This document shows positions 38,453 to 56,999 of a DNA stretch of 64,000 bases, piece by piece (position 1 is the first letter of the stretch; the number at the start of each line of letters is the position of its first letter). Under the pieces are notes generated by a model, which was not told the DNA's origin, made no database searches, and saw only the letters and a list, made by a program, of their open reading frames with translations. This DNA is from Solirubrobacterales bacterium (GTDB taxonomy: Bacteria > Actinomycetota > Thermoleophilia > Solirubrobacterales > 70-9), in assembly GCA_036009365.1 (NCBI GenBank), contig DASYLY010000091.1, positions 556 to 64,555 of the forward strand, in the 5' to 3' direction. The translations under genes were made by a program, and so were the position numbers.

Positions 38453-38541
38453 GGAGAGGTGGCCGAGTGGCTGAAGGCACTCGCCTGCTAAGCGAGTAGG
38501 GGGCGCAAGCTCTCTCGAGGGTTCGAATCCCTCCCTCTCCG
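38453..38541 (+). tRNA. tRNA-Ser (anticodon GCT)
   Basis: GGAGAGGTGGCCGAGTGG..., anticodon loop CTGCTAA, long variable arm, GGTTCGAATCC. Confidence 0.9.
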
Positions 38542-38550
38542 TCGTCGTTC

Positions 38551-39231: not shown

Positions 39232-39509
39232 TCCTCGAGAGTCGCTTCCGTCGCGGAGAGCTGCTTGGTGTCAAGCCGATACAGGCGTCTCGGCCGGCGT
39301 CCGGCTGCTACCGCGACCTCCTGCGGCTCCCACGCGGATGTGAGGAACCCGCGCTCCTCGAAGCGATGCAGGATGGGGTAGAGGAGTCCGGACTTTAGAT
39401 TGGCTTCGCGGATGATCTCCAGTCCATAGCGCTCTCGCTCCGGGTCTTGGAGGAACAGCAGCAGGACCGCTGCTGCCTGGTCGCTTAAACGCCGTGCTCT
39501 CTTTGCCAT
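39168..39509 (-). CDS. PadR-family transcriptional regulator (short form)
   Basis: YGLEIIREANLKSGLLYPILHRFEERGFL...RRLYRL. Confidence 0.75.
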   Translation of the reverse strand: MAKRARRLSDQAAAVLLLFLQDPERERYGLEIIREANLKSGLLYPILHRFEERGFLTSAWEPQEVAVAAGRRPRRLYRLDTKQLSATEATLEEWRQAVKEDRGASGSMREAFA

Positions 39510-39577
39510 CCCAATAAATCTACCATGGAAGACTTTATAGATAGAGAGTCCGAAGGTCCTCCCTCTAAAGTCAAGCG

Positions 39578-41032
39578 ATGGAGGCCGCCTCGAATCCCCT
39601 GCGCGCCGCTCACATCGGGCGGCGGACGAAGATCATCGCCACGGTTGGCCCGGCGAGCTGGGAGCCGGCGGTCCTGGAGCAGCTGATCGAGGCCGGCGCC
39701 GACGTCTTCCGCCTCAACTTTTCCCACGCCGGCAGGGATCGCCACGCGCAGACGATCGAGGACGTCCGTGCTGCCGCTCAGAAGGTCGGGCGCGAGGTCG
39801 CGGTGCTCGGTGACCTGCCGGGGCCGAAGCTGCGCATCGGCGAGCTGCGCGACGACTTCGCCGAGCTGAAAACGGGGATGCACGTGACCCTGACGCCGCG
39901 TGAGGTGGAGGGTGACGGCGAGACGATCCCGGTCTCCTGGCCCGGCGTTACCGACCTGCGTGAGGACCAGCTCGTCTACCTTGCCGACGGGGCGATCCGC
40001 CTGCGGGTCAACGACCCCGAGCCCGACGGCGTCGACTGCGAGATCGAGGTGGGCGGGACGCTCTCCTCCCACAAGGGCATGAACATCCCTGGCGGCGCTG
40101 ATCTGCCGGCGACTACCGGCGTCGACCTCGGCTGGGTTGAGTTCGCGGTCGCCCATGGCGTCGACCTGCTGGCCGTCTCCTTTGTCTCCACCGCCGCCGA
40201 CCTGGCGCCGGTCGCGGCGCGGCTGCGCGAGCTCGACTCCAACATCCCGCTAATCGCCAAGATCGAGAAGCGGGAGGCGGCGGCCAACGCCGAGGAGATC
40301 GTCCGCGTCGCCGGCGGCGGGATCATGGTCGCGCGCGGGGACCTCGGCATCGAAGTGCCGCTGGAGAAGGTGCCGGTCGAGCAGAAGCGGCTGATCCGCG
40401 TCGCCGGGCAGCGCTCCAAGCCGGCGATCACGGCGACCCAGATGCTGGCCTCGATGGTCACCGCTCGCCGCCCGACTCGGGCTGAGGTGACCGACGTCGC
40501 CAACGCGATCTACGACGGCACCGACGCGATCATGCTCTCCGAGGAGACCGCGGTCGGCCAGAACCCGATCGAGGCGGTGCGGGTGATGGACCGGATCGCC
40601 CGCGCCACTGAGCCCGACCTGCGCTACGGCGAGTGGCTGTTCACCCGCACCGACCAGACGACCCAGGACGTCGCCGACTCGGTTGCCCAGGGCGCCGTCG
40701 GCGCGGTCTACCGGCTCGGCCTGAAGGCGCTGGTGGTGCCGACCAACAGCGGTCGCACCGCTCGCCTCGTCTCCGCCCACCGCCCCAACGTGCCGGTGCT
40801 GGCGATCTCGCCGTACATCGAGACGGTGCGGCGCCTCAACCTTCTCTTCGGCATTACCGCGGTGCAGAGCGACTTCGGCAGCGAGCTGCGCAGCCTGCTC
40901 GGCCACTGCGCGGGCCTGGCCGCCACTTACGGCGTCGCCGCACCTGGTGAGCTGATCGCGATCACCGCCGGGCTCGACGGCCAGGAAATGGGCACCAACC
41001 TGTTCGAGGTCCACAGGGTGCCGGAGCTGTGA
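39578..41032 (+). CDS. pyk: pyruvate kinase
   Basis: RRTKIIATVGPAS, FRLNFSHA, MVARGDLGIEVP, MLSEETA. Confidence 0.95.
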   Translation: MEAASNPLRAAHIGRRTKIIATVGPASWEPAVLEQLIEAGADVFRLNFSHAGRDRHAQTIEDVRAAAQKVGREVAVLGDLPGPKLRIGELRDDFAELKTGMHVTLTPREVEGDGETIPVSWPGVTDLREDQLVYLADGAIRLRVNDPEPDGVDCEIEVGGTLSSHKGMNIPGGADLPATTGVDLGWVEFAVAHGVDLLAVSFVSTAADLAPVAARLRELDSNIPLIAKIEKREAAANAEEIVRVAGGGIMVARGDLGIEVPLEKVPVEQKRLIRVAGQRSKPAITATQMLASMVTARRPTRAEVTDVANAIYDGTDAIMLSEETAVGQNPIEAVRVMDRIARATEPDLRYGEWLFTRTDQTTQDVADSVAQGAVGAVYRLGLKALVVPTNSGRTARLVSAHRPNVPVLAISPYIETVRRLNLLFGITAVQSDFGSELRSLLGHCAGLAATYGVAAPGELIAITAGLDGQEMGTNLFEVHRVPEL

Positions 41033-41808
41033 GCTCCCCGGTCCGAGTCGAGCGCGAGGAGGGTCTGGCGGTGCTGACCCTCGACAGCCCACCGCTGAAC
41101 CTCTTCGACCAGGCGATGATCGACGGCATCGAGGCGGCGATCGAGGCCGTCGTCGCCGAGCCGCCTCGGGCGCTGCTGATCCGGGCCGAGGGGCGCGCTG
41201 TTTCAGGCGGCGTCGACGTCCACGTCTTCGAGGGGCTCAGCCCCGAGCAGGCGAGCGCGCTCTGGGGCCGGCTGCTGGGGATGATCGACACGCTCGAGGC
41301 GCTGCCGCTGCCCACCGTCTTCGCCGCGCACGCCCTGACTCTGACCGCGGCCTTCGAGATCTCGCTCGCCTGCGACCTGATCGTCGCCGCGCCGGTAGCG
41401 AAGTTCGGCCTGGTCGAGAAAGTGGTCGGGCTGACGCCTTCGATGGGCGGCACCCAACGCCTCGCCGAGCGTGCCGGCAGCGGCCGGGCGCGGCAGTTGG
41501 TGATGACTGGCGAGCTGTTCTCGGCTGAGGAACTGGAGCGCTGGGGCGCCGTCAACCTGATTTTCGACGGCGAGGACTTCGACGCCCAGGCCCGCGCCTT
41601 CGCCGCCGAGTTGGCGACGGGGCCAACCAAGGCCCACGCGATGACCAAGCACATCCTTGCCCGCTTCCGCCAGGGCGGTGTACCGGCCGCCGATGAGGCG
41701 GTGCGGCGGGATGCAGGTGACCTCTTCGCAACCGAGGATCTGCAGGGCGCCGTCCGCACCTTCCTCGAGCGGGGGGGTCCGGGGCACGCGACCTTCGAGG
41801 GGCGTTAG
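41029..41808 (+). CDS. enoyl-CoA hydratase/isomerase (crotonase) family protein
   Basis: LTLDSPPLNL..., crotonase-fold oxyanion segments. The GTG start overlaps the pyk stop (GTGA). Confidence 0.85.
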   Translation: MSSPVRVEREEGLAVLTLDSPPLNLFDQAMIDGIEAAIEAVVAEPPRALLIRAEGRAVSGGVDVHVFEGLSPEQASALWGRLLGMIDTLEALPLPTVFAAHALTLTAAFEISLACDLIVAAPVAKFGLVEKVVGLTPSMGGTQRLAERAGSGRARQLVMTGELFSAEELERWGAVNLIFDGEDFDAQARAFAAELATGPTKAHAMTKHILARFRQGGVPAADEAVRRDAGDLFATEDLQGAVRTFLERGGPGHATFEGR

Positions 41809-41818
41809 GGTCTCGACC

Positions 41819-42274
41819 ATGACCGACTTCGACGCAATTGCACAAGGTATGACCCAGGCTGTTCCCTTCGCCGGGAACCTGGGTCTCGAGATCACCGGCA
41901 TCAGCGAGGGCGAAGCGACCGTCGTCCTCCCCGATCGCCCCGAGCTCGGCAACCACGTCGGCTCCCAGCACGCCGGCGCTCTCTTCACCGTCGCCGAGAC
42001 GGCATCGGGCGCGGCCTTCGTCGGCGCCTTCGCCGAGCGCATGGGCGACGTCACGCCGCTCGCCCGCAGCGCTGAGATCGCCTACGAGAAGATCGCCAAG
42101 GGCCCGATCACCGCAACCGCCACCCTCGGCGTCGCCAAAGACGACGCTCTTGCCGCCCTCGACGCCGACGGCAAGGTCGAGTTCCCCTGCGAGGTAAAGC
42201 TCGCGGACGAGTCCGGCCTCCAGGTGGCCACCGCCACCGTCCACTGGCACGTCCGGCTCAAAACGCCGGCCTAG
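41819..42274 (+). CDS. hotdog-fold thioesterase (PaaI/DUF4442-like)
   Basis: NHVGSQHAGALFTVAETASGAA is a typical PaaI-like segment. ATG 41819. Confidence 0.65.
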   Translation: MTDFDAIAQGMTQAVPFAGNLGLEITGISEGEATVVLPDRPELGNHVGSQHAGALFTVAETASGAAFVGAFAERMGDVTPLARSAEIAYEKIAKGPITATATLGVAKDDALAALDADGKVEFPCEVKLADESGLQVATATVHWHVRLKTPA

Positions 42275-42343
42275 CCCCCGGCTCCCTCCCCGCGCATCAA
42301 AGCCCGTAGAATCGCCCGTCCGGGGACCCCAAGCCCCTAGCTT

Positions 42344-42417
42344 GCGCCAGTAGCTCAGCCGGATAGAGCGTCGGTCTACGAAACCGAAGGTCACAGGTTC
42401 GAATCCTGTCTGGCGCA
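42344..42417 (+). tRNA. tRNA-Arg (anticodon ACG)
   Basis: GCGCCAGTAGCTCAGCCGGATAGAGC, anticodon loop CTACGAA, GGTTCGAATCC, acceptor CTGGCGC + A. Confidence 0.92.
42376..42416 (+). repeat. attL core (3' 41 nt of tRNA-Arg)
   Basis: ctacgaaaccgaaggtcacaggttcgaatcctgtctggcgc, identical to 51964-52004. Confidence 0.85.
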
Positions 42418-42488
42418 TAGACGTGATCCCGCTTGGGAAGCGGGTTTGCGGGGATTTGAGGCTCGGCCGGGAAGGCCGAAAAGAGCGC

Positions 42489-42509
42489 TGGGGCAACGCC
42501 TGGGGCAAC
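42489..42509 (+). repeat. two direct TGGGGCAAC boxes, 12-bp period (candidate recombinase arm-type sites, attL side)
   Basis: tggggcaac at 42489-42497 and 42501-42509. The same doublet is found at 50041-50061 and 51846-51866. Confidence 0.5.
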
Positions 42510-42644
42510 ACGAGGTCCGGGTAGAGGTTCGGCCTGGCCCTTGAGAGGGCGCTTCCCTCCACCTACGTTCGCCGCCGAAAGCACCCAACAAGCACCCCCG
42601 CGCTGCGCAAACAGCCGGGGGCATGGCACAGAAGGCGAGCTCCC

Positions 42645-42935
42645 ATGCACGACAAGGTTATGGGCGCGGGCGAGCAGAAGCTCGACTCGACCGCGGCCGA
42701 AGACGCACGCGACCAGGCGCAGGTTCTCCGCACGGCTCTGGACCTCTACCCGGCGACGCTGACGCTCGACGAGCTGGTCCGCGAGTTGACTGTTGCCTCG
42801 CCCGATTTCTCAGAGCAGGATCGAATCCAGCGAGCTGTCCGCGACCTGACCGCGGGCGGCCTGGTCCAGCGGATCGGCGATCTCGTCATGCCGACGAGGG
42901 CCGCGGTGAACTTCAACGCCCTGCCCCGCGAATGA
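42645..42935 (+). CDS. small winged-helix-like protein, island-associated (paralog of 52652-52936)
   Basis: Clear paralogy over about 65 aa with 52652-52936 (..LTLDELVRELT...RIQRAVRDLTAGGLVQRIGDLVMPTRAA.. vs ..LTMPELVEEMC...AVERAVRELIATGLVLRQGAFVVPTPAA..). ATGA overlap with the next gene. Confidence 0.6.
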   Translation: MHDKVMGAGEQKLDSTAAEDARDQAQVLRTALDLYPATLTLDELVRELTVASPDFSEQDRIQRAVRDLTAGGLVQRIGDLVMPTRAAVNFNALPRE

Positions 42936-43552
42936 CGGGCGGCGGAGGAAAGGTCGGGCGGGGGAAGCTGCGGCTCTTCGTCGCACTCGACCTGCCCGTG
43001 GCGGTGCGCCGCGATCTGAACGTGTGGCGACGGGCGGCGCTGACCGATCCGGCCCTTCGCTTCACCGAGGGGCCGCGAATGCTCCTTCTCTTCCTCGGCC
43101 ACCGACCGCAGCGGGAGGTCGTCCCATGCCTGGAGGCGATCCGAGAGCTGTGCGCAAGGGCGCCCGCGCCCCTGATCGAGCTGGCCGATGTCGAAGCGAG
43201 GGGCCGCCGGCCCACTCGCCCCCGGCTGTTCGCGCTGCCGGCAAGGTTGCCTGGCGTGGAAGTTCTCCAACTCGCCCTGCGCTCTGCTTTCGAGTCGCAG
43301 GGGCTGGCCTTCCACGAACCCAGGCAGCGGTCGTTCTGGCCGCACCTGACCGTCGCCAGGGTGGCGACCGAGCAGCGCCCGTCGCGCTGTCCGCTGCTGG
43401 TTCACGATCTGCCCGACCGCCCGCTCCCGGCTGGACTGCGAGAGCCGTTCAGAGCGGAGAGCGTCGGCCTCTACTTGTCTGAGCTGTGGCCGGACGGAGC
43501 GCGTCACCGGCTGCTGGGAAGGGCCGAGCTGGCGGCTGTTCCTGGTCGTTGA
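42932..43552 (+). CDS. 2H-phosphoesterase (LigT/ThpR)-like protein with degenerate first HxT motif
   Basis: N-terminus LRLFVALDLP (ThpR-like), second motif WPHLTVARV intact (43343-43354), but the first motif position reads PRMLLLFLG (43073-43099) instead of xHxTLxFLG. Confidence 0.6.
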   Translation: MTGGGGKVGRGKLRLFVALDLPVAVRRDLNVWRRAALTDPALRFTEGPRMLLLFLGHRPQREVVPCLEAIRELCARAPAPLIELADVEARGRRPTRPRLFALPARLPGVEVLQLALRSAFESQGLAFHEPRQRSFWPHLTVARVATEQRPSRCPLLVHDLPDRPLPAGLREPFRAESVGLYLSELWPDGARHRLLGRAELAAVPGR

Positions 43553-43612
43553 CGACGGGGTTGTCGCTGGGGTTTACCGGGGGGTTTCCACCGGGGTTGA
43601 CACGCGATTTGA

Positions 43613-43684
43613 GTTCGCACTGCGGCTCGCTCTGCACTTCGCTCTGTGGTTCGCACTGCACTTCGCACTGCAGTTCGCATCGCG
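43613..43684. repeat. 6 x 12-bp tandem repeat, consensus (G/C)TTCGC(A/T)CTG(C/T)(A/G)
   Basis: Units gttcgcactgcg / gctcgctctgca / cttcgctctgtg / gttcgcactgca / cttcgcactgca / gttcgcatcgcg, read directly. Located 310 bp upstream of the integrase start. Confidence 0.85.
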
Positions 43685-43992
43685 CCGCTCGGCAAAGCCC
43701 GCCTGGCCTCGTCCAGCCTCGCTTTCCGGCGCTTCCGGCGCGCTGACTTCTATATCCCGACGGGGGTTGGTCTCGAATCGCTCCTCCGTGGTGGCCTCCA
43801 CCGATCGCGGGAATCGTCCCGCCGCCGTCAGCCTCGCCGTGGCCTCTGCTGACCTTCGCCTTGTTGCCGTCGCGCTCCCATTCGGTCGCGCTCCGGCCTC
43901 CGGCATTCGTCCTGTTAACGTTTTGTCCGCGAACGTCAAACGGGGCGGCGTCGCGCAAACGACCCGCCCCACGGCTCACGAGGTGGAATCTC

Positions 43993-45177
43993 ATGAGCGT
44001 TTCCCAGGATACGTCGGCCCCCGCGGCCGAGCAGGGCTGCGGCGACAAGCGGCGGCTCGTCAAGACCAAGACCCCCAGCGTCTTCAAGCGCATCGACGGC
44101 ACGGGGAAGACCATCGGCTACGCCTGCGTCTCCGCAGCGCCGGCAGGCAGCGAAAGCGCCACGCCCGCACCTACGCAGAGGCGAAGCGGATCAAGCGCGA
44201 GAGCGAGACCGACCGCGATCGCGGCGAGCTGCAGGAGCGCAGCGCGATCACCCTCCGCCGCTACCTGGACGAGTGGGTCGAGCGCTATCGCGGCCAGGGC
44301 CGCCGCGGCTTCCGCGAGAACACCCGCGACGAATACCGCCGCCTGATCCACGTCTACGCCCGTCCCTACTTCCCGGCCCGCCTCAAGCTGGTCCACCTAC
44401 GCGCTGGCCCGCTTCGTGGATTGGCTGGCCGACGAGCAGGCGCAGGGCAAGCGCCTGGGCGACCGCACCATCGCCAACGCGACGATGCCGCTCCGCGCGG
44501 CGCTATCGACGGCGAAGCGCGAGGGCCTGATCCGCCACAACCCGGCGCAGGGGTTGTCGCTGTCGCCGCGCGAGCAGCTCCCCAGCGACGAGATCAAGGT
44601 CTTCACGCCCGAGCAGCTCGCGACCGTCATCGAGACAGCCCCAGAGCGCCACAGGCTGCTCTTGGAGCTGCTGGCGGCGACCGGCCTGCGGATCAGCGAG
44701 GCGATCGCCCTGCAGCGCCTCCACGTCCAGTTGGACAGCCCCGCGCCCGAGGTCTGCGTCCGCCGCGCGATCGTCAACGGCCGCACCGAGCCGCCGAAGA
44801 CCAAATACGGCCGTCGCGAGGTCCGCCTCCCGGCCTCACTGGCCACCAGGCTCCGCGCCCACCTCGCCGCCGAGCCCGATCAGGACTCCACGGCGATCCT
44901 CTTCCCCAACGACGCCGGCGCCCCGCTCGACCCCAGCAACCTCCGCCCCCGCGTCCTCAAGCCCCTCGTCAAGCGGGCCGGCGCCCCCTGGGCGGGCTTC
45001 CACACGTTCCGCCACACCTTCGCCTCGCTCCATCTCAGCCGGGGCACCAACCTCCTCCAGCTAAGCCGCGCCCTCGGCCACCACTCGCCCGCCTTCACGC
45101 TCACTCGCTATACGCATCTGTTGCCGGGCGATGAGGCGCCAGCACTGGACCTTCCGGCCATGAGTCCAACCGCGTAA
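43993..45177 (+). pseudogene. tyrosine recombinase/phage-type integrase interrupted by two compensating frameshifts
   Basis: N-terminus MSVSQDT..KTKTPSVFKRIDGTGKTIGY (frame 1), SAM-like core RSAGRQRKRHARTYAEAKRIKRESE...RRYLDEWVERY...ARLKLV (frame 0, about 44120-44397), catalytic domain ALARFVDWLADEQ...TGLRISEA...HTFRHTFAS...LGHHSPAFTLTRYTHL (frame 1). The frame-1 stop at 44344-44346 lies inside the shifted segment. Confidence 0.8.
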
Positions 45178-45382
45178 CGCCTTTCAAGAGCGCTCAAGCT
45201 CGGAGAGATGTTGGGCGGGAGGCCCGGGGGCGACCCGGACCTCCCTAAATGCTGGCCTCCCGATCAAGGGGCGCCCTACATGGGGGACAGCCACTCTGGG
45301 GCGGAGAATACCAACTATCCCATCTTCTTCAACCTGACTCAAAACGGACTCAAACCATAGCTTATCGCCTTCTAGGGGAGAA

Positions 45383-45437
45383 AGCACCTATATAGCACCT
45401 ATAAAGCATTTGCTTTGGACCCTAAGATCGCTATACT
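45383..45437 (+). promoter_or_regulatory. AT-rich promoter region with AGCACCTATA x2 (11-bp period) and a TATACT -10 box 6 nt before the ATG (leaderless-type)
   Basis: agcacctata at 45383-45392 and 45394-45403; TATACT at 45432-45437; ATG at 45444 with no RBS. Confidence 0.4.
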
Positions 45438-45443
45438 TAGCTA

Positions 45444-45863
45444 ATGAGCTTGCCCTATCAAAGCCAAGAGTTCGTATATGTCCCGGTTCCCGCTGTAAGA
45501 GTGGCAGAGGTTTTCCGGCTCCTAGCAGGCCTCCCAGAGGACACGGCAGAGGCGCCGGATTCGAAGCGGGTAGTCCGGCGCGTCTTTCTCGAAAGCGAAG
45601 AGAACTTCCGGGCCTTGCTGCGCTTCCTCGCGAGCCGTCCGGGGCAGTCGATTAGCACCGCGGAAGCGGCCGAGGCGCTGGGCCTGCCCAATGGCGCAGC
45701 GTCCGTAGCGGGCATGCTGGGTGCCTTTGCCCGGCGATCGAAGAACCGCTACGACGGCTTTTGGCCCTTTGAGCGCCTCTATAACCCTGCTCAAGACAGG
45801 GCCGAGTTGATGATGGAGGGCAATATTGCTGCGATCGTGGATGGCCTCGATCTGCCCTCGTAG
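45444..45863 (+). CDS. hypothetical protein with probable HTH segment (island cargo)
   Basis: 139 aa. SISTAEAAEALGLPNGAASVAGMLGAF is HTH-like. I recognise no family. Confidence 0.5.
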   Translation: MSLPYQSQEFVYVPVPAVRVAEVFRLLAGLPEDTAEAPDSKRVVRRVFLESEENFRALLRFLASRPGQSISTAEAAEALGLPNGAASVAGMLGAFARRSKNRYDGFWPFERLYNPAQDRAELMMEGNIAAIVDGLDLPS

Positions 45864-45903
45864 GCCGCCGGTTCAGGTAGATGTTGCCGAGCTAGCGGGG
45901 AGA

Positions 45904-46377
45904 TCATCGCGCGAGGATCCGAGCGATCCTTTCTGCGGCATCCGCAGACGTCTCATGCTCCCAGACCCTAACCACGGCCCATCCTGCCTCACCCAGCGCA
46001 GCATTGTTGAATCGATCACGCTCCATATTTCGAGCGAGCTTGGCGCTCCAATAGGAGACGTTGGTCTTGGGGCTCGTTCCGTGGTCTGGGCATCCGTGCC
46101 AAAAGCAGCCATCCATGAAGACGGCGACCTTCTGGCGGCGAAAGACGATGTCCGCTTTGCAGCGCAGTCCCTTCAGCGGCTTCTGGTCGACGCGATACCG
46201 CAAGCCGCGCCGGTGAAGCTCCGAGCGAAGGGCCAGCTCGGGGCGGGTATCGCGCTTGCGGTTGCCCTGCATGGCTGCTTTGACGGCAGGAGAAGAGGCC
46301 GAAGGAGCCTTGGGAACGACGGTGGTGGGCCGCTTGCCGCCCGTTCCATCGGGGGGACTTTCTAGGTTGGCGGGCAT
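45904..46377 (-). CDS. vsr: very-short-patch repair endonuclease
   Basis: RKRDTRPELALRSELHRRGLRYRV...ADIVFRRQKVAVFMDGCFWHGCP...YWSAKLARNMERD...GWAVVRVWEHE. The start is ATG 46377 or the internal ATG 46272. Confidence 0.85.
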   Translation of the reverse strand: MPANLESPPDGTGGKRPTTVVPKAPSASSPAVKAAMQGNRKRDTRPELALRSELHRRGLRYRVDQKPLKGLRCKADIVFRRQKVAVFMDGCFWHGCPDHGTSPKTNVSYWSAKLARNMERDRFNNAALGEAGWAVVRVWEHETSADAAERIARILAR

Positions 46378-47506
46378 GGATGCGATCTCCCTCTTCTCAG
46401 GAGCGGGCGGGCTTGACCTTGGTTGCGAGGCGGCCGGTTTCGAGACGCGTGCGGTCGTGGAGATGGAGGAGATCGCACGCAAGACGATCCTCTCAAACCG
46501 CCCCGAGTTCTTTCCCCAGCTTCGAGACGAGGCGGTGTTTGCCGACATTCTCGAGACCGATCCTCAGGACCTTCTTGAGCGGTCTGGGCTAAGTCAAGGA
46601 GAGGCGTCCCTACTGCACGGGGGGCCACCTTGCACGCCCTTCTCCAAGTCTGGCTATTGGCTTGCTTACAAGCGAGCTGGAGAAGATCCTCGGGCAAGCC
46701 TTCTCGACGAGTACGTGCGGATGCTGCGGGGCCTTCAGCCGAAGGCATTCCTCATGGAGAACGTCTACGGCCTCGCGTACCGCAATCAGAACCGCGCTGT
46801 GCTTGAGCGGTTCTTGCGACGGACCCGCGCGGCGGGCTATGTCGTCGAGTTCCGGATAATTCTCGCGGCGGACCTCGGCATCCCTCAGCTTCGTCAAAGG
46901 CTCTTCTGTGTAGGGATACGGCGCGATCTGATTCCGGGCGCCGGAAAAGGTTGGGAGTTCCCATGGCCCGAGCCCACTCATTCGGGTCCGCACGAGACGC
47001 GGACCGGCTGGGACAAGGAGTTGCCGCTCCACATAAGCGCTGGGCAGGCATTGGCGTCTCTGCCCGATGATGCGAATCCGCCTGAGCCCGAGGAGGTTGT
47101 CTCAGGCACTTACGCGGAAGCTCTTAAAGCCGTTCCCAGCGGCGAGAACTACCTGTTCTGGACGGCTGAGCGTGGTCACGACAAGCCCCGTTTCAAATGG
47201 CGCTCGCGCTATTGGAGCTTCCTGCTGAAGCTCCATCCGGATAAGCCATCCCCGACGATCCAGGGTCAGCCTGGACCGTGGGTGGGGCCTTTCCATTGGG
47301 ACAACAGGCGCCTGCGTGTTGCCGAGGTCAAGAGGCTGATGACCTTTCCCGATGCTTTTACGGTCTTGGGGTCTCGAAGGGAGCAGCAACTCCAGCTCGG
47401 CAACGCCGTGCCGCCGGAGCTTGGACGGGCGGTCGCAACTGCCGTGGCAGGCGAGCTAAGGCGCTTGGACTGTGCTCCCTCGCCAGAGCTCGCCCTGGCT
47501 GCCTAG
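46376..47506 (+). CDS. DNA (cytosine-5)-methyltransferase
   Basis: Motif I FSGAGGLDLG, motif IV GGPPCTPFS, motif VI LMENV, motif VIII QLRQRLF, motif X GNAVPPEL. Confidence 0.9.
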   Translation: MDAISLFSGAGGLDLGCEAAGFETRAVVEMEEIARKTILSNRPEFFPQLRDEAVFADILETDPQDLLERSGLSQGEASLLHGGPPCTPFSKSGYWLAYKRAGEDPRASLLDEYVRMLRGLQPKAFLMENVYGLAYRNQNRAVLERFLRRTRAAGYVVEFRIILAADLGIPQLRQRLFCVGIRRDLIPGAGKGWEFPWPEPTHSGPHETRTGWDKELPLHISAGQALASLPDDANPPEPEEVVSGTYAEALKAVPSGENYLFWTAERGHDKPRFKWRSRYWSFLLKLHPDKPSPTIQGQPGPWVGPFHWDNRRLRVAEVKRLMTFPDAFTVLGSRREQQLQLGNAVPPELGRAVATAVAGELRRLDCAPSPELALAA

Positions 47507-47564
47507 AACTCACCCCACAAGTCTGAGGTTTCCGAGTGTCGGGACGCGCGGTTAGCTTTCCGGC

Positions 47565-48632
47565 ATGGGGATCAGGCTCGAAGACCAAGCTTTGCTTCTA
47601 ACGCTCGATGACGCGCTCGCGCTGGCGCGATCACCCGAGGAGCTGCCGGCGGTGTGGATCGCCCGCGTGGAGCGGCTCGGCAGCCTGGGAATCAAGACCT
47701 ACATCGCCGCGCTGGGTGGCGCGCTCCTCGCGAAGGCGACTGATCCTCGAGTGGACAGTCTCGCCCAGGATGGAGCCGCGGGGCCGCGCGGATACAGCCT
47801 GCGGAAGGCGGCGGAGTTCCTAGCCGAGCAGAACAACAGTCGCTATGACCTGGGTGCGAGGGGGCGGTGGCCCCTTAACAACAGGCCCTTCCTTGGGGGG
47901 CCAGCGCGAATCGACGAATTCACGAAGATCTCTGGAAGGGCGCGACCGGCGTATGAAGCCTTTCTCGACGCGCTTCGAGATCTAAATCGCCTCGAGCGTC
48001 CCGAAGCCCTTTCAGCCCTGTCGTCTTTCCTCCGCGTGCGGATGGATGTCCAAGAGGTCGAGCGAACGGAAGCCCGCGCAACCCGGCAACTGGAAAGCGA
48101 TGTTGCGCTCGGGGATCTCGTCGGAATTGTCGATCGGTTTGTTCGATCTGCCCCAGAAGGGGGACGACGCGCGCAAGCCCTGGCTGCTGCCGTCTTGGAT
48201 TGTGCGTTCGATGAGGTTGATCTTCAGCCGATCAACAGCCCCCATCCGGGCGATGTCCGGGTAATGCTGGATGGCCAGATTGTCCTCGCGGTTGAGGCAA
48301 AGCAGCTTCCGGTCGGCGAGGCTGTGGCGTCAGAGCTGTCGCGAGAGGCGGCCGAGCTTGGCGCCGACTTGGCGCTGCTCGTGGTGATCGCCGAGAAGCA
48401 CGCGCCCCTTGATCGTGATCGCGTCCAAAGAGAGGCGCTGCATAGCGACGGAACGCTGCTCGTCGTCTGCGAGAGCGTGTTGGAGTTGATCTGTTCTGCT
48501 GCGGTTCTTTCTGGAACGCCAGCCGCTCGAATAGAGGAGGATCTACCCGGCGCATTCGCTGGGCGGTTGCGAGAGATCGGGACTAGCAAGCAAGGTCAAG
48601 ATGAGTGGAGGCAACTGGTCGAGGATCGATGA
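47565..48632 (+). CDS. putative type II restriction endonuclease (PD-(D/E)xK-like) cognate to the m5C methyltransferase
   Basis: Sits immediately downstream of the MTase. HPGDV-x13-EAK (..PGDVRVMLDGQIVLAVEAKQ..) fits a PD...ExK nuclease core. I recognise no other family. Confidence 0.5.
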   Translation: MGIRLEDQALLLTLDDALALARSPEELPAVWIARVERLGSLGIKTYIAALGGALLAKATDPRVDSLAQDGAAGPRGYSLRKAAEFLAEQNNSRYDLGARGRWPLNNRPFLGGPARIDEFTKISGRARPAYEAFLDALRDLNRLERPEALSALSSFLRVRMDVQEVERTEARATRQLESDVALGDLVGIVDRFVRSAPEGGRRAQALAAAVLDCAFDEVDLQPINSPHPGDVRVMLDGQIVLAVEAKQLPVGEAVASELSREAAELGADLALLVVIAEKHAPLDRDRVQREALHSDGTLLVVCESVLELICSAAVLSGTPAARIEEDLPGAFAGRLREIGTSKQGQDEWRQLVEDR

Positions 48633-48635
48633 CGG

Positions 48636-49991
48636 TTGGTCAGCAGCCCCGTCTGCGTTCATCTCACTCCTCTAATGTCCACCGCTCGTATCGAACCCAT
48701 CTACCGTCCCTTCGATGAGGGGCGATTTCTCTTGTTTGATGGGCCCCTTGCCCTTCAGGGCCAGGGCGAGTCGCGGTCGCCGGCTCCTGGGCAGATCGAA
48801 CTCCAGCTAGATCTTGCTCCAAGGCTACGCGCCCATTTCTTCGATTCGGGCGCGGTGAGAGCCCTCTTCTTTGCTCAGGAGGGCGACTCCATCCTCACCG
48901 TCTCTCTGCCGGAAGGGGCGGATCTGATGCCTCCTTCGCCTTCGGCTGTTGGGAGCAGAGAGCGGCGTTCTCGCGGGGAGTTCCCCACTGCTTCGATGCG
49001 GGTCGGCGATCTCGATTCCGTTACGCGAATCGTCTTCCACATCAGCGGTGCCCTGAAGGTAATGGGCCTAGCTCGCGAGCTGGACGATGGAGGTCGACAG
49101 GTTCAGGTCGACTTCGCCCTGCCCGGTTGGGATCTGGCGATCGCCCCTCATAGTCCGGAGACAGATCAAGACGCCGACTTTGTAGCGGTTGTTAGGGCGA
49201 CGCCCACCTCATTGCCGATTTCAGCTGACGATGTCGATCGCCTGAAGCGGCGTCTCTTTCTTCTCCTGAGCTTTCTTGCCAATCGTGAGATCGGGGTCGG
49301 GCCGATCTGCGGCATGACAGGGGAGCGGGTCGTGTGGGCAGAGTGGGGGGCGCCGCGCTTGATGCCCGGGAGACCGGGTATCAAGTGGTGCCCCGATCTG
49401 CTCGTCCCCGATGCGCTCCCCGTCCTGGCCAAGGGGTGGACGTCGCTCTCTGCGGACGCGGCGATGGAGAAGATCCTCGACCGCGCGATCGGGCTATCGC
49501 TGGGTGCGAATGCCCGGGAAGTTCTCGACGTGAGGATTCCGATTGCATGTGCCGGTGCTGAGCTACTTGCTTGGACCGTTCTGCAGCGTGAAGGCTGGCT
49601 TGTTCGGGGTGATGAGCAGCGCGCTCTCCGCGCTGCCGGAACCCTTCGCCTGATGCTGCGATGGGCAGGAATCGCGACCGAGATTCCAGCGCACTTCGAC
49701 CAGCTTCGAGAGCGCCGTGACAAACGCACCCGTGAAGGTCAGAAGGGCTGGGAGGGCCCAGAGCTTCTTTTCGACATTCGAAATCGGCTCATGCACCCGC
49801 CCAAGAACCTGGATGACCCAGAGTGGCCCGATGGAGGCGAACTCCTCGAGGCATGGCAGCTCGGGACTTGGTATCTCGATCTCGCCTTGCTCCGCTTGTT
49901 GAACTACCAAGGCGAGTACTGGTCAAGACTGCGCTTGAATCGATATGACACGGATCTTGAGCCAGTGCCTTGGAATCAATCCACTAGCTGA
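48636..49991 (+). CDS. unknown 451-aa protein with C-terminal RNxxxH (HEPN-like) motif, coupled to the R-M operon
   Basis: Starts 4 nt after the REase stop (TTG 48636; alternative ATG 48675). FDIRNRLMHPP (R382-H387, nt 49779-49796) is followed by a predicted amphipathic helix [21 protein letters not shown]. Confidence 0.55.
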   Translation: MVSSPVCVHLTPLMSTARIEPIYRPFDEGRFLLFDGPLALQGQGESRSPAPGQIELQLDLAPRLRAHFFDSGAVRALFFAQEGDSILTVSLPEGADLMPPSPSAVGSRERRSRGEFPTASMRVGDLDSVTRIVFHISGALKVMGLARELDDGGRQVQVDFALPGWDLAIAPHSPETDQDADFVAVVRATPTSLPISADDVDRLKRRLFLLLSFLANREIGVGPICGMTGERVVWAEWGAPRLMPGRPGIKWCPDLLVPDALPVLAKGWTSLSADAAMEKILDRAIGLSLGANAREVLDVRIPIACAGAELLAWTVLQREGWLVRGDEQRALRAAGTLRLMLRWAGIATEIPAHFDQLRERRDKRTREGQKGWEGPELLFDIRNRLMHPPKNLDDPEWPDGGELLEAWQLGTWYLDLALLRLLNYQGEYWSRLRLNRYDTDLEPVPWNQSTS

Positions 49992-50040
49992 TTTGGCAAC
50001 CCGCAAGCAGATTGACACCCTGAGCCTTGAGCTTCGCCCA

Positions 50041-50202
50041 TGGGGCAACAAATGGGGCGACATGCCCCACAGATTCCAGCCGATCCCAGCGGGACTCGAT
50101 CCGCCGCAAACCGCTTGAACCCACGCCCCACGTAGCCCAGCCGACCCACCGTCTAGGGCTACAAAGCCGATCGTGACCTTCCCAGTGGGAACCGAAGGTC
50201 AC
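50041..50202 (+). repeat. copy A of the 130-bp right-arm repeat plus a degenerate att core (internal attR')
   Basis: 50041-50170 is about 92% identical (10 mismatches by hand) to 51846-51975. The att core is broken by a GTGACCTTC(50173-50181)...GAAGGTCAC(50194-50202) inverted duplication. Confidence 0.75.
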
Positions 50203-50341
50203 TTCTTCGACAATTGCCATGGTCGCGGCGCCTCAGGTCGGGCGAAACTTCTCCCACGAGAGACCGGATGCCTCTTCTTCTCCCTCCGTCCCAGTTTTCG
50301 CTCCGGCAGCTCGGTTTTGACCCGGAGGAGGAGATGAGCTG

Positions 50342-50557
50342 ATGGACATCGCAGAGGCGAAAGCAAAGCTCGAAGCGGTCCTTGACGAGCTCGCGGAGGC
50401 TGGCTTCTCGGTTTGGGGGTGGGACGATGGGTCGATCCAGATCGCGCACCTGAATGAGCCGAGCATCGCCTGTGCCCCCCGTCACGTATCGCTCGATGTG
50501 GGCCGCGACGTCAACGGGGATTCCGAGGAGGTTCGGGAGGGGCGGGAGCGCTTGTGA
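50342..50557 (+). CDS. small hypothetical acidic protein
   Basis: 71 aa with a strong RBS GGAGGAGGAG 6 nt upstream. It competes with the antisense ORF 50159-50593, which lacks an RBS. Confidence 0.4.
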   Translation: MDIAEAKAKLEAVLDELAEAGFSVWGWDDGSIQIAHLNEPSIACAPRHVSLDVGRDVNGDSEEVREGRERL

Positions 50558-50573
50558 GTGCCGCGCAGCCCCT

Positions 50574-50599
50574 TGTTTCATGTATCGAAACATGAAACA
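50574..50599. promoter_or_regulatory. perfect 10-bp inverted repeat TGTTTCATGT-n6-ACATGAAACA upstream of the AbiEi-like gene (candidate operator, or terminator of the upstream ORF)
   Basis: Read directly. Ends 9 nt before ATG 50608. Confidence 0.45.
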
Positions 50600-50607
50600 A
50601 TAGCCTT

Positions 50608-51114
50608 ATGTTGAAGGGGCAGGACGTGGTTGTGTTGCTGAAGCTGCTCGGCTTGGACGAGCCGTTTCCCGTGCGCGACCTTGCAAGCCAGCTTGGCTTC
50701 GACGTGGCGGGCACCCACCGTGCCATGCGTCGCCTCGACGAAGCCGGTCTCTATTCGGTTGAGCGGCGGAGGGTCTATCGAGCTGCGGCCGAGGAGTTCC
50801 TGATCCACGCCGCCAAGTTCAGCTTCCCCCCACGCTGGGGGTCCGAAGTGCGGGGTGTACCCACGTCCTGGGCTGCTGAGCCGCTGAGGGCAGAGCTCGC
50901 CGAGTCCGGTGGCTTGCCTCCGGTGTGGCCCTATGCCAAGGGAACGGTGCGCGGTCTCGGGTTGGAGCCGCTGCACGCGATGGCTCCCGGGGCAGCGCTC
51001 GCCGATCACGCGCTGTGGCAGCGCCTGGCATTGGTCGATGCGCTCCGGAGCAACGACAGCGCCCGCATAACCCAGCTCGCGGAGAAGCTCCTGAAGGAGA
51101 GGGTCGGGTCGTGA
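50608..51114 (+). CDS. winged-helix (MarR/AbiEi-like) putative antitoxin/regulator
   Basis: VVVLLKLLGLDEPFPVRDLASQLGFDVAGTHRAMRRLDEAGLY is a wHTH. The stop overlaps the start of the nucleotidyltransferase gene (GTGA). Confidence 0.6.
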   Translation: MLKGQDVVVLLKLLGLDEPFPVRDLASQLGFDVAGTHRAMRRLDEAGLYSVERRRVYRAAAEEFLIHAAKFSFPPRWGSEVRGVPTSWAAEPLRAELAESGGLPPVWPYAKGTVRGLGLEPLHAMAPGAALADHALWQRLALVDALRSNDSARITQLAEKLLKERVGS

Positions 51115-51818
51115 GCATCGCGATGCTTGAGCGGGCCGCGCAGGAGTTGGCCCCGTTCCTCGACGAAGTTGCCTTCGTCGGTGGAGCGACCATCGCACTC
51201 TGGATCACCGACCAGGCGGCTCCTGAGCCACGGGTGACGAAGGATGTGGACCTCGTAGTCGAGGTTGCCTCGCGTGCTGCCTGGTACCGCTTCGAGGAGC
51301 GCCTTCGCGACCACGGACTTCGCAACGACGCATCGAGCCGCGTGATCTGCAGGTGGAGAGCCGGTAGCGACGGCGACGAACTCCTGGTCGACGTGATGCC
51401 AGCCGATGCAGCGATCCTCGGTTTTGAAAACCGATGGCTGGGCTTGGCGCTTGAGTACGCAGAAACGCTGCCGCTGCCGTCTGGCCAGCGGATACGAGCG
51501 ATCTCGCCGCCCTACCTGCTTGCGACGAAGCTGGAGGCATGGAGCGGCCGCGGAGGCGGCGATCACCTCCGCAGCCACGACCTCGAGGACGTGATCCGGC
51601 TGGTCGACGGGCGAGCCGAGGTCGTCGGGGAAGTCAGTGACGCTTCCGATGATCTCCGCTCTCTTCTATCCGGAGAGATCGCGACTCTCCTCGACCAGCC
51701 TAGGTTTCTGGACGCGATCGACGGAACTGTCATCGGCTTCGGACGCGGGAGCTCTGGAGGCGGGGATCGCGTCGAGGAGATTGTCTTGCCCCGTCTCCGT
51801 GCCCTCGCGGGACAGTGA
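51111..51818 (+). CDS. nucleotidyltransferase-fold protein (AbiEii/DUF1814-like putative toxin)
   Basis: FVGGATIAL-x17-TKDVDLVV (NTase G[GS]...DxD) and LLATKLEAW...SHDLEDVIRL (AbiEii-like motif III context). Confidence 0.65.
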   Translation: MSIAMLERAAQELAPFLDEVAFVGGATIALWITDQAAPEPRVTKDVDLVVEVASRAAWYRFEERLRDHGLRNDASSRVICRWRAGSDGDELLVDVMPADAAILGFENRWLGLALEYAETLPLPSGQRIRAISPPYLLATKLEAWSGRGGGDHLRSHDLEDVIRLVDGRAEVVGEVSDASDDLRSLLSGEIATLLDQPRFLDAIDGTVIGFGRGSSGGGDRVEEIVLPRLRALAGQ

Positions 51819-51845
51819 TCCCGACTCGCGGGAGGGCAGTCTTCC

Positions 51846-51963
51846 TGGGGCAACAAATGGGGCAACATGCCCCACAGATCCCAGCCGATCCCAGCGGGAC
51901 TCGATCCCCCGCAAACCGCTTGAACCCGCGCCCCACGTAGCCCAGTCGACCCACCGCCTCAGG
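51846..51963 (+). repeat. copy B of the 130-bp right-arm repeat (includes the TGGGGCAAC doublet and the GGGGCA-aca-TGCCCC palindrome)
   Basis: See copy A. Directly abuts attR. Confidence 0.75.
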
Positions 51964-52004
51964 CTACGAAACCGAAGGTCACAGGTTCGAATCCTGTCTG
52001 GCGC
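51964..52004 (+). repeat. attR core (41-bp copy of the tRNA-Arg 3' half)
   Basis: 41/41 identical to 42376-42416. The preceding bases differ from the tRNA, so it is not a second tRNA gene. Confidence 0.85.
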
Positions 52005-52254
52005 GTCTCTTGTCGTTGTGCTTGTCCTGATCGGCCAGCTCCTCAGCCAGCCGGGCAAGCTCGGAGATCTCGACGTCGAGGCTGCGGGCGATTGCAGCTA
52101 GGACCTTCCAGGTCGGGTTGCGCCGGCCGCGCTCGATGCCGGAGAGGTAAGTCCAGTGGATGCCGGCGGTGGCGGCGAGACCCTCGACGGTTAGTTCCCG
52201 CTTGGTCCGCAGGTGGCGGATGACGGCGCCGAGCTGGGCTTGCGTTGGTTCCAC
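51979..52254 (-). CDS. XRE-family HTH regulator
   Basis: LGAVIRHLRTKRELTVEGLAATAGIHWTYLSGIERGRRNPTWKVLAAIARSL. The last 8 codons and the stop lie inside the att repeat. Confidence 0.7.
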   Translation of the reverse strand: MEPTQAQLGAVIRHLRTKRELTVEGLAATAGIHWTYLSGIERGRRNPTWKVLAAIARSLDVEISELARLAEELADQDKHNDKRRARQDSNL

Positions 52255-52269
52255 GCGATGGACTCAGGG

Positions 52270-52554
52270 TCAGCTTGAGGTGGGGTCCGTCGGGCTGGGC
52301 CGAGAGCTTTCCCGCTGTCGGTCGGCCAGTTCCTCCGCTAGAAGCACAACCGCCGAGACTTCGATGTCAAGCGCCTCGGATAGGGAGCGAACGATGTTCC
52401 AGCTCGGGTTGCGCTGCCCTAGCTCGATGCCCGAGAGATAGGTGGTGTGGATTTCCGCCTTGCCCGCTAGCTCTTCGATGCTGAGGTCGCGCCGTTTGCG
52501 AAACCAGCGGATGGCATTGCCGAGCCGGGCTGGAGTTGGCGTCGTGGTCGGCAC
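52270..52554 (-). CDS. XRE-family HTH regulator (tandem paralog)
   Basis: LGNAIRWFRKRRDLSIEELAGKAEIHTTYLSGIELGQRNPSWNIVRSLSEAL. GTG 52554 was chosen; the longer ORF to 52737 overlaps the divergent gene. Confidence 0.7.
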   Translation of the reverse strand: MPTTTPTPARLGNAIRWFRKRRDLSIEELAGKAEIHTTYLSGIELGQRNPSWNIVRSLSEALDIEVSAVVLLAEELADRQRESSRPSPTDPTSS

Positions 52555-52651
52555 GCCCGGGAGCCTTCCGCCGCCGTGTCGATCTGACCATAGCCTATAG
52601 TCTTGGTCCGTCGAGGGGGCGAATTTATGGCTCCCACGACTTGGACTTCCT

Positions 52652-52936
52652 ATGCACGACGAACAACGTCGGCGGCGCGATCTGCCATCCGCCCGCAGGG
52701 ACGCGATGGTCGAAGGGGCTGCCCTCGCGCTCCTCATCGAGTGCCACCCGGATCTGCTGACGATGCCGGAGCTGGTCGAGGAGATGTGCAGCGGCTCGAA
52801 GGATTCCGATAGGCGCGATGCCGTCGAGCGCGCCGTCCGCGAGCTGATAGCTACCGGTCTTGTGCTCCGCCAGGGCGCCTTCGTGGTCCCGACCCCGGCG
52901 GCACTCCGAGTCGGCGAACTCGAGCTCGGGCTGTGA
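52652..52936 (+). CDS. small winged-helix-like protein (paralog of 42645-42935)
   Basis: Paralogy as described for 42645-42935. GTGA overlap with the downstream RHH ORF. Confidence 0.6.
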   Translation: MHDEQRRRRDLPSARRDAMVEGAALALLIECHPDLLTMPELVEEMCSGSKDSDRRDAVERAVRELIATGLVLRQGAFVVPTPAALRVGELELGL

Positions 52937-52962
52937 GCAGATATCTAGGCCATATTCAGGGC

Positions 52963-53193
52963 ATGGCCAAGGTGCTTGTCTCCTTCGACGATGACCTACT
53001 GCGGCGTATTGATCTCGCCGCCTGGGCCGCCGGTCAGTCGCGCAGTGCGTACCTTTCGGTGCTCGCGGAACGCGACTGGAGTGCGGGGCCTGGAGGAACT
53101 TCCGCGGCGCTTCTAGAGCTTGATCGACTCTTTGCCGACGCTCTCGCTGATGATGTCACCGCCGCCATTCGGGCTGAGCGGGACGCACGGTGA
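52963..53193 (+). CDS. ribbon-helix-helix (CopG/VapB-like) antitoxin-type protein, apparently orphan
   Basis: MAKVLVSFDDDLLRRIDLAAWAAGQSRSAYLSVLAERD is a typical RHH N-terminus. Only a 12-codon ORF (53190-53228) follows. Confidence 0.6.
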   Translation: MAKVLVSFDDDLLRRIDLAAWAAGQSRSAYLSVLAERDWSAGPGGTSAALLELDRLFADALADDVTAAIRAERDAR

Positions 53194-53224
53194 ACCAATC
53201 TCGGTTCGCGACCGCGCTCGGCTA

Positions 53225-53749
53225 CTAGCCGAGTCCTGCCTGCGCTTCCGAGAGCCAGTGCGAGGCGACCTGCCATTCACGCTGCAGCTCGGGTTCGACC
53301 ACTTCGCCGTTGCAGCCGGCGTCGGCGAGGCATTCGCCCCAGTTGTTGGCGGCCTCGATGTAGCGGTTGAAGGCTTTCTCGCCGGGGGTGCCGGCGGCGA
53401 TCAGGCAGTCGGGGGAGAGGGTGTCGATCGGGAGGTCTTCGTAAGTGGTCCTGATTCGCTTTACGGCGGCGGCGTATTGCTGATAGCTGAGGCCGGATGC
53501 GAGGCGGATGCGGAGGCGGTCCAGGGAGTCGAGGAAGTCGCCCAGTTGGGTCTCGCAGGGGGCGGCATGGGCCGGACTCTTCGGATGCTGCTTGGCGACG
53601 TCAGTGGTCGTCGTCTCTTGCTCGGAGGCGACGTTTCCCTTCCCGGGCGCCGCAGGGCTGCTGGAACCGCAGGCCGGCAAGGCGAGGGCGGCGATCAGTG
53701 CGCAGACGGCAAGCAAGCGCCTGGTGGCGGCGGGCGACGTCGGTCTCAT
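53225..53749 (-). CDS. lipoprotein of unknown function
   Basis: Signal peptide with lipobox LALPAC-G; four further Cys. Confidence 0.6.
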   Translation of the reverse strand: MRPTSPAATRRLLAVCALIAALALPACGSSSPAAPGKGNVASEQETTTTDVAKQHPKSPAHAAPCETQLGDFLDSLDRLRIRLASGLSYQQYAAAVKRIRTTYEDLPIDTLSPDCLIAAGTPGEKAFNRYIEAANNWGECLADAGCNGEVVEPELQREWQVASHWLSEAQAGLG

Positions 53750-53799
53750 CGGGCCGGCAACGCTACCTGTCTCGGTACCGGGTCATGTAGAAATCGCCG

Positions 53800-54597: not shown

Positions 54598-54624
54598 GAG
54601 CGCCGCCGACTTACAGCGGTCGAG

Positions 54625-56994: not shown

Positions 56995-56999
56995 CGAGG

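Follow-up and report, generated by a model that had tools for sequence, protein, structure and literature searches.

Here, we describe a genomic island at positions 42417 to 52004 of a 64-kb stretch of DNA from a Solirubrobacterales bacterium (the window, meaning the whole 64,000 nucleotides (nt) analysed), which was, with a probability that we put at roughly 85%, inserted into a tRNA-Arg(ACG) gene by a lambda-type tyrosine integrase as a mosaic composite whose integrase gene has since been broken. The window is part of the JGI metagenome contig Ga0372945_0000005 (sample 3300035669), from which the gene calls were taken. The evidence comes from an exact direct repeat at the two ends of the island, from conserved arms beside the repeat copies, from a family of related elements that occupy the same tRNA gene in some genomes and not in others, and from the gene content and the lesions of the integrase gene.

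The last 41 nt of the tRNA-Arg gene (42376-42416), CTACGAAACCGAAGGTCACAGGTTCGAATCCTGTCTGGCGC, are repeated without a mismatch on the same, forward strand at 51964-52004; no third copy is present in the window at up to three mismatches, and none of 100 dinucleotide-preserving shuffles contained a match. The initial annotation of this DNA, made from the letters alone, had reported this recurrence and had taken the second copy for a scar and not a second tRNA, and both points are borne out by the exact search: the sequence 5' of the second copy (…CCACCGCCTCAGG, as against …GAGCGTCGGT in the tRNA) is unrelated to the tRNA 5' half, and ARAGORN calls no tRNA there. As the repeat begins at the anticodon loop, CTACGAA, and runs to the end of the acceptor stem, the attachment (att) site belongs to the anticodon-centred class, which is a common one; the earlier description of an insertion into a tRNA 3' end thus does not hold in the narrow sense of a 3'-end site. 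To the left lie, as had also been recognized, ordinary metabolic genes for pyruvate kinase (pyk), enoyl-CoA hydratase (ech) and a DUF4442 thioesterase.

The same site has been used in many related genomes. For comparison, 80 loci encoding relatives of the thioesterase were fetched (cited below by numbers with the prefix L), and second cores, that is further copies of the repeat, were sought within a 10-kb flank. The tRNA-Arg gene lies 3' of the thioesterase gene in 77 of the 80, and 32 hold at least two core copies within 10 kb, sometimes a third, bounding intervals of 0.7 to 8.5 kb. Elements of the window's type, here termed family A, are found at this tRNA in about 20 related Solirubrobacterales genomes and are marked by a repeat of exactly 41 nt, by pairs of the 9-mer TGGGGCAAC in both arms and by an integrase 76-89% identical to that of the window; repeat length and 9-mer pairs in both arms coincide at 10 loci plus the window. 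A second type, family B, has repeats of 44-48 nt, a left end formed by an XRE regulator and an orf94-like gene, and an integrase 24% identical to the window's. The tRNA-Arg gene 3' of pyk, ech and the thioesterase gene is an order-wide hot spot for at least two integrase families. The att features of the window are:

42343-42418, forward strand: tRNA-Arg(ACG), the integration target (ARAGORN).
42376-42416, forward strand: attL core, 41 nt (exact repeat, of the same length in 10 other family-A islands).
42417-42580, forward strand: P' arm, with a hairpin at 42428-42444, an inverted-repeat arm at 42443-42465 and TGGGGCAAC at 42489-42497 and 42501-42509 (72-90% kept in relatives).
50040-50210, forward strand: internal att-like site, a P-arm copy followed by a rearranged, truncated core (self-comparison of the window).
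51845-51963, forward strand: P arm, with TGGGGCAAC at 51846-51854 and 51858-51866 and an inverted-repeat arm at 51895-51917 (79-93% identity in about 20 relatives).
51964-52004, forward strand: attR core, the displaced 3' fragment of the original tRNA (exact repeat).

The arms carry much of the argument for site-specific insertion. Each comprises about 120 nt of conserved element DNA, and the P arm adjoins the distal core without exception in the roughly 20 relatives. When attP was rebuilt as P arm, core and P' arm for 16 family-A elements, the core, the hairpin directly after the tRNA and several P-arm blocks proved invariant or nearly so, and the TGGGGCAAC copies kept fixed offsets from the core start in all 16, at -118 and -106 in the P arm and +113 and +125 in the P' arm. 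Short motifs repeated in both arms some 70-120 bp from the core are the arrangement in which the paired 9-mers likely serve as arm-type integrase sites, a candidate role suggested by their placement. Two further elements of the arms stand beside these. The hairpin CCCGC-TTGGGAA-GCGGG (42428-42444), supplied by the element directly 3' of the tRNA and invariant in the 16 attP sites, could be a tRNA processing or termination signal brought by the island. A 23-nt inverted repeat, 78% complementary, pairs 42443-42465 in the P' arm with 51895-51917 in the P arm (it also occurs at 50090-50112), and in attP its arms would bracket the core at about ±47 bp, interior to the TGGGGCAAC pairs.

The proposed route follows the general scheme for such islands. 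In attP the element would have brought its own version of the tRNA stretch that extends from the anticodon loop to the acceptor end; the tRNA gene would have been split by strand exchange, presumably in or beside the anticodon loop; and the element's copy would have rebuilt it as attL while the original 3' fragment was pushed 9.6 kb away to become attR. The 3' 41 nt of the present tRNA-Arg gene are accordingly supplied by the element.

Occupancy of the site varies, as expected of an insertion. In L090, a metagenome contig and the closest relative found, 36460-42416 and 52033-58800 of the window have collinear counterparts at 81-87% nucleotide identity; the contig has a single core followed by genes for XRE1 (84% amino-acid identity), XRE2, orf94, a lipoprotein, an SGNH hydrolase and an acyltransferase, with no family-A element; the gene order of L007 is the same. 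As far as sequence comparison goes, both are family-A-empty sites at the level of gene order. The empty site that the initial annotation had expected in relatives, tRNA-Arg running directly into the sequence right of 52004, is found as gene order and not as an exact junction: an exact search of metagenome contigs for the predicted junction gave no match, the source contig apparently lying outside that collection. Its claim of site-specific insertion at the tRNA is upheld by the family as a whole, with the shared 41-nt repeat, the conserved arms, the variable cargo and a close relative that lacks the island.

Intact family-A members measure 6-8 kb and share a frame consisting of the P' arm, an orf96-like gene, the integrase gene (int), a variable slot, usually a toxin-antitoxin (TA)-like pair, and the P arm. 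In the relatives the slot directly 3' of int holds AIPR with MNT/HEPN (L082), SIR2 (SIR2_2; L084) or SEC-C with HEPN_LA2681 (L088), and in L085-L087 the same Vsr-Dcm-SacI module as in the window; in L083 it is filled by an unannotated 626-aa (amino acid) protein. To judge from its sequence, the window island carries defence genes as cargo, namely those for Vsr, Dcm, a SacI-like restriction enzyme and the candidate pair PDC-M21. The genes concerned are:

45904-46377, reverse strand: Vsr very-short-patch repair endonuclease (PF03852; TIGR00632, E 1.2e-39; PADLOC Vsr).
46376-47506, forward strand: C-5 cytosine DNA methyltransferase, Dcm (PF00145, E 5e-52; TIGR00675; PADLOC type II methyltransferase).
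47565-48632, forward strand: SacI-family type II restriction endonuclease (PF09566, E 5e-18; PADLOC REase_II, E 2e-29).
50608-51114, forward strand: PDC-M21A, a winged-helix protein in the position of an AbiEi-like antitoxin (PDLC04515, E 2.7e-33; weak winged helix-turn-helix Pfam matches).
50925-51818, forward strand: PDC-M21B, an AbiEii-like nucleotidyltransferase, start codon uncertain (PDLC04516, E 1.1e-63; PF08843, E 2e-8).

The adjacent methyltransferase and endonuclease, both matched above cut-offs, form with Vsr a SacI-family type II restriction-modification (RM) system, and PDC-M21 is listed by PADLOC as a candidate defence pair.

These modules do not form one simple unit: the 9.6 kb between attL and attR, the bounds of which the initial annotation had recognized, contain a rearranged att-like site. 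Over 137 nt, 50041-50177 matches 51846-51982 at 91% identity, a stretch that takes in the P arm and 19 nt at the start of the core. The inner core breaks after CTACAAA, reading GCCGATCGTGACCTTCCCAGTGGGAACCGAAGGTCAC and then unrelated sequence; its T-arm part is lost, and it contains an inverted duplication of GAAGGTCAC. The same rearranged core occurs in seven other genomes (L013, L029, L066, L071, L075, L083 and L087), and is therefore older than the insertion seen in the window. The cassette between it and the terminal P arm and core differs: L083 has VapBC, and the window, L029, L071 and L087 have PDC-M21. The inner site marks an old junction between the int and RM part and the TA-like PDC-M21 cassette, and is probably unusable. 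In sequence the island is a clear mosaic: 42993-45158, around int, is 92% identical to L082, whose cargo is AIPR with MNT/HEPN; the Vsr-Dcm-endonuclease block has its nearest counterparts, at 79-80% identity, in L085-L087, elements with an intact int; and the nearest match of the PDC-M21 block, at 83% identity, is in L070, which has it beside the tRNA and with no integrase.

Most likely, tandem accretion built the composite elsewhere and it came in as one unit, the simplest history for an island with perfect outer repeats around an old inner site; earlier accretion would have created the inner junction, which would have been rearranged before the composite moved into the tRNA. Alternatively, there may have been two separate insertions in this host, a small PDC-M21 element first and an int-RM element later on its tRNA-proximal side. 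Tandem arrays are common at this tRNA (L023, L049, L052, L061, L085, L088), small PDC-M21 or TA islands without int stand alone beside it (L070, L071, L020), and tandem accretion is a general model for such elements (PMC5704250). Two insertions should nevertheless have left a good core at the recent junction, yet it is the inner core that is rearranged and truncated and the supposedly older outer one that is perfect; the presence of the same rearranged core in seven other genomes likewise places it before the window insertion. We therefore regard this history as rather unlikely, and less likely than the arrival of a ready-made composite.

The conserved rearranged core is the sole unexplained feature of the island, and nothing in the case departs from established mechanisms. 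A 7-bp hairpin is predicted in it, without covariation. We consider it a long shot that the rearranged core and its P-arm copy work as a secondary recombination site that, together with the terminal P arm and core, brackets a swappable TA or defence cassette; if they did, family A would possess an integron-like exchange of its attR-proximal module.

The gene for the integrase presumed to have inserted the island is no longer intact. Its features are:

43993-45177, forward strand: tyrosine integrase pseudogene (three-frame translation; DNA alignment with five intact homologues; PF00589 in the C-terminal frame).
43612-43679, strand not assigned: 12-nt tandem repeat AGTTCGCACTGC, 5.7 copies, about 320 nt upstream of int (TRF).

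Alignment with five intact homologues shows deletions in int of 1 nt (after 44131) and 8 nt (after 44393), so that the N-terminus lies in a first frame, the next segment in another, and the PF00589 catalytic domain back in the first. Translation from the ATG at 43993 ends at 44344-44346, giving 118 aa; with the nine bases put back, the frame encodes 397 aa, and this protein shares 75-92% identity with more than 120 full-length integrases with PF13102 and PF00589 from soil metagenomes and Solirubrobacterales metagenome-assembled genomes (MAGs). The tyrosine recombinase gene announced by the initial annotation is thus present as a PF00589 domain (E 1e-18) and not as an open frame; Xer and integron NCBIfam models score far under their cut-offs. 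The inactivation looks recent because the expected catalytic residues all remain, the motifs LRISE, KTKYGRR, HTFRH, GHHS and RYTH being readable in the C-terminal frame, and on the proposed history the two deletions would have followed arrival. Since int encodes a 118-aa fragment only, sequence suggests that the island can probably no longer move, save with the help of a related integrase acting in trans; no second integrase lies in the 64-kb window.

The protein as it was before these losses fits a heterobivalent integrase with arm-site binding, at least as modelled. The AlphaFold model of P0001, a homologue 92% identical, has an N-terminal four-strand sheet and a helix at residues 44-106 (predicted local distance difference test score 70-87), preceding the core-binding and catalytic domains, and the model aligns with full-length lambda Int over 377-382 columns, but with a global template modelling score of only about 0.38 (predicted score 0.42). 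Besides the short motifs in both arms, the likeness to lambda Int may extend to a three-domain protein with a predicted N-terminal sheet and helix. The Int of mycobacteriophage L5, which acts at a tRNA-Gly gene, is likewise a lambda-type heterobivalent integrase with arm-type sites. Unlike the lambda-type systems, family A shows no Xis-like (HTH_17) gene, and the collections searched contain no phage integrase more than 31% identical to that of the window and no plasmid integrase above 29%, those of Streptomyces plasmids included. Repeats similar to AGTTCGCACTGC occur upstream of int in 10 relatives, and for some of them the match lies on the other strand, the unit being close to a palindrome centred on CTGCAG; the array may be a regulatory operator array.

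It seems unlikely, on balance, that the island is still active and excises itself, either with the frameshifts being assembly errors or with a family-A integrase elsewhere in the genome acting in trans. The attL and attR cores are identical, all four 9-mers are kept in the arms, the catalytic-motif residues are intact, every cargo gene looks intact, and relatives carry tandem arrays with several integrases at this locus. Against activity stand two independent lesions, one of them 8 nt long, in comparison with the intact homologues, the full length of the other contig genes, the lack of another integrase in the window, and the frequency of broken or missing int genes in family A, where int is intact at 10 loci, frameshifted or truncated at five and absent at six. 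The practical message is that the window contains a decaying, probably immobile copy and not an active element.

The gene content of the island bears on what kind of element it was. Among its genes none was found for transfer, mobilization, replication or phage structure, and because the defining genes are absent it is neither a prophage or satellite nor an actinomycete integrative and conjugative element (AICE), integrative and conjugative element (ICE) or integrative and mobilizable element (IME). A remnant prophage or phage satellite is very improbable: the nearest named relatives of the integrase are actinophage integrases (of Arthrobacter phages, about 30% identity), but a PHROGs scan of ten open reading frames (ORFs) from 42645 to 53193 gave a single, weak match to a transcriptional repressor, and this for orf86, which is not part of the island; neither the island nor the intact relatives examined contain capsid, terminase, primase or packaging genes, IMG/VR viral contigs yielded no relative of the integrase, and the intact members are just 6-8 kb long.

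Hardly more credible is an AICE, ICE or IME, although integration from the anticodon loop to the 3' end of a tRNA gene by an actinobacterial tyrosine integrase recalls pSAM2 and SLP1. These are Streptomyces AICEs that integrate in tRNA genes and whose identity segment likewise runs from the anticodon loop to the tRNA 3' end. The host, the integrase type and the segment agree; unlike them, the window island is much smaller, carries defence cargo and is without replication or FtsK-like transfer genes, and searches of the window and seven annotated relatives with Pfam, NCBIfam and PHROGs found no FtsK/TraB-like translocase, replication initiator, relaxase or oriT-associated gene. Finally, a chance repeat or an assembly artefact, for which the metagenomic nature of the contig might speak, is effectively refuted by the empty shuffles and by the same tRNA-plus-fragment architecture in dozens of independent short- and long-read assemblies, which also disposes of the assembly duplication that the initial annotation had allowed for.

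Several observations weigh against an insertion of the kind proposed. The window sequence derives from metagenome assembly, and the int lesions rest on a single consensus sequence, though an 8-nt deletion is atypical of sequencing error and the genes neighbouring int are intact. L090 is about 14% diverged from the window and has 1.05 kb of unrelated DNA between its tRNA and XRE1; no base-for-base empty site was found, nor was a genome of the same species, the best flanking identity (86% in nucleotides) being that of L090. The order of events is deduced only from the contrast of perfect outer repeats with a rearranged inner site. A break in base composition is present, G+C falling from about 0.70 to 0.61-0.65 between 45000 and 53500, but its start lies 2.6 kb into the island and it extends about 1.5 kb beyond the right end, so that the leftmost 2.6 kb are host-like and the left boundary is unmarked by composition alone.

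The low G+C beyond the right end coincides with what appears to be another element. The sequence right of 52004 is not plain host DNA and looks like the remnant of an element of the second family. Its features are:

52005-53200, strand not assigned: probable family-B remnant (Pfam helix-turn-helix matches; gene order as at family-B left ends; G+C 0.65).
51979-52254, reverse strand: XRE1 (Pfam helix-turn-helix).
52270-52737, reverse strand: XRE2 (Pfam helix-turn-helix).
52652-52936, forward strand: orf94 (40% identity to orf96, described below).
52933-53193, forward strand: orf86, ribbon-helix-helix-like (weak PHROGs transcriptional-repressor match).

XRE and orf94-like genes form the left end of islands with 44-48-nt repeats at other loci, and the XRE1-XRE2-orf94 module is common to the window, L007 and L090. 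We infer that the remnant is probably the older occupant, already beside the tRNA, as in L090 and L007, before the family-A composite was inserted. Neither an integrase nor a right-hand repeat was found for it; a degenerate core at 53230-53245 was tried as its right end and rejected, as it scores under a random match elsewhere. The XRE1 stop codon (51979-51981) lies inside the attR core, its last eight codons thus coming from the displaced tRNA fragment. Tandems of the two families (L085, 1188-15477; L061; L023) occur in either order, tRNA-B-A in L085 and L061 and tRNA-A followed by the family-B remnant in the window, and so insertion can use the tRNA-proximal or the distal core.

Within family A the window copy is early on a path of decay. 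Further along it lies L020, where 10748-12262 is a 1.5-kb mini-island in which exact 41-nt repeats enclose the two arms, an MNT/HEPN pair and a fragment of the Dcm methyltransferase, and which looks like an att-flanked remnant of family A resembling a cis-mobilizable element (CIME); similar minis are present in L018 and L071. In L088 there are two successive attR sites, the distal one merely decayed. The TA-like pair beside attR is the last module to survive (L020), which fits, by analogy, the stabilizing role of such pairs on other islands.

The principle is a textbook one. The Islander database rests on the splitting of a tRNA gene, its restoration by the island and the displaced fragment at the far end, and about half of its 3,919 islands are anticodon-centred, with tandem arrays also recorded (PMC4383910). 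The window island resembles this 'A' class in having an intact tRNA gene (tDNA) and a 3' fragment in direct orientation at its ends with a PF00589 integrase inside, in the start of its repeat at the anticodon loop and in the tandem arrays at one tDNA; it differs in that its integrase gene is a pseudogene and that one internal fragment is rearranged instead of being a clean tDNA fragment. Decay to att-flanked remnants and tandem accretion have been described for streptococcal elements and others (PMC5704250). As in CIMEs and accretion of the ICESt1/ICESt3 type, integration genes have decayed while att sites were kept, and composites can move as a unit; unlike the latter, the window family is known from sequence alone, has no known conjugative partner and has a rearranged inner att site. 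Set against the definition of a CIME, attL and attR are both intact in the window, and int is inactivated yet still present. Defence-carrying integrated mobile elements (PMC10201445) offer a parallel to the variable slot, filled as it is with restriction-modification, AIPR, SIR2 or HEPN systems. The TA-like pair beside attR recalls sgiAT of SGI1, a TA pair that stabilizes its island as cited in PMC5704250, and by its position the pair in the window may do likewise. The window island is thus of an ordinary kind, but its Solirubrobacterales family has not been described previously; our literature search found no paper on integrative elements of this order.

Solirubrobacterales are abundant soil actinobacteria, almost wholly uncultured and probably under-represented among complete-genome collections such as Islander's, and we know of no genetic tools for them. 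A compact attP of about 300 bp and a conserved attB in tRNA-Arg(ACG) are parts for an integrating vector in this order, and the slot directly after int is a place to mine defence systems, from restriction-modification, AIPR, SIR2 and HEPN to unannotated proteins; family A may in this way become a source of both integration tools and defence genes for an uncultured clade.

The remaining genes of the island are:

42645-42935, forward strand: orf96, 96 aa, first gene at the left end (gene call; homologues at the same position in relatives).
42932-43552, forward strand: 2H-phosphoesterase-like (LigT/ThpR-like) protein, 206 aa, a weak match (TIGR02258, E 1.7e-11, under the curated cut-off; weak Pfam 2_5_RNA_ligase2).
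45444-45863, forward strand: DUF6416-like protein (gene call; lacking in the int-RM elements L085 to L087, which are similar in other respects).
48675-49991, forward strand: 438-aa protein, 3' of the restriction enzyme (YopA_C, PF27216, in precomputed annotation only).
50342-50557, forward strand: orf71, a 71-aa ORF or leader upstream of the PDC-M21 pair (gene call).

The small protein orf96 is a candidate regulator or directionality factor. A single 309-aa ORF at 42623-43552 was rejected in favour of two genes, given the source gene calls and the homology of its first part to orf94-like genes; the phosphoesterase-like protein is 94% identical to its L082 homologue. Neither orf96 nor the DUF6416 protein has a match in PHROGs, PADLOC or NCBIfam, nor has the 438-aa protein in these libraries or the local Pfam, and its position is taken in the int-RM elements of L085 and L086 by two different unannotated proteins (219 and 213 aa). 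The DNA of orf71 is conserved upstream of the winged helix-turn-helix gene in L025, L049, L066, L075 and L088, and as this conservation fits the forward-strand ORF or leader, the reverse-strand 'orf144' (50159-50593) is probably spurious.

The SacI site GAGCTC is not avoided in the window (48 observed, 58 expected), a count uninformative on SacI-like activity; the most under-represented 6-bp palindromes there are ATCGAT, AAGCTT, CACGTG, AGGCCT and TGATCA (observed/expected 0.39-0.58). The genes flanking the island are 62-84% identical, over the best segment, to their counterparts in Solirubrobacterales MAGs. Of the three tRNA genes that ARAGORN finds in the window, the two besides tRNA-Arg are tRNA-Ser genes to its left (34585-34673 and 38452-38543), no fragment of either being repeated in the window, and the order tRNA-Ser, tRNA-Ser, pyk, ech, thioesterase, tRNA-Arg is kept in several relatives.

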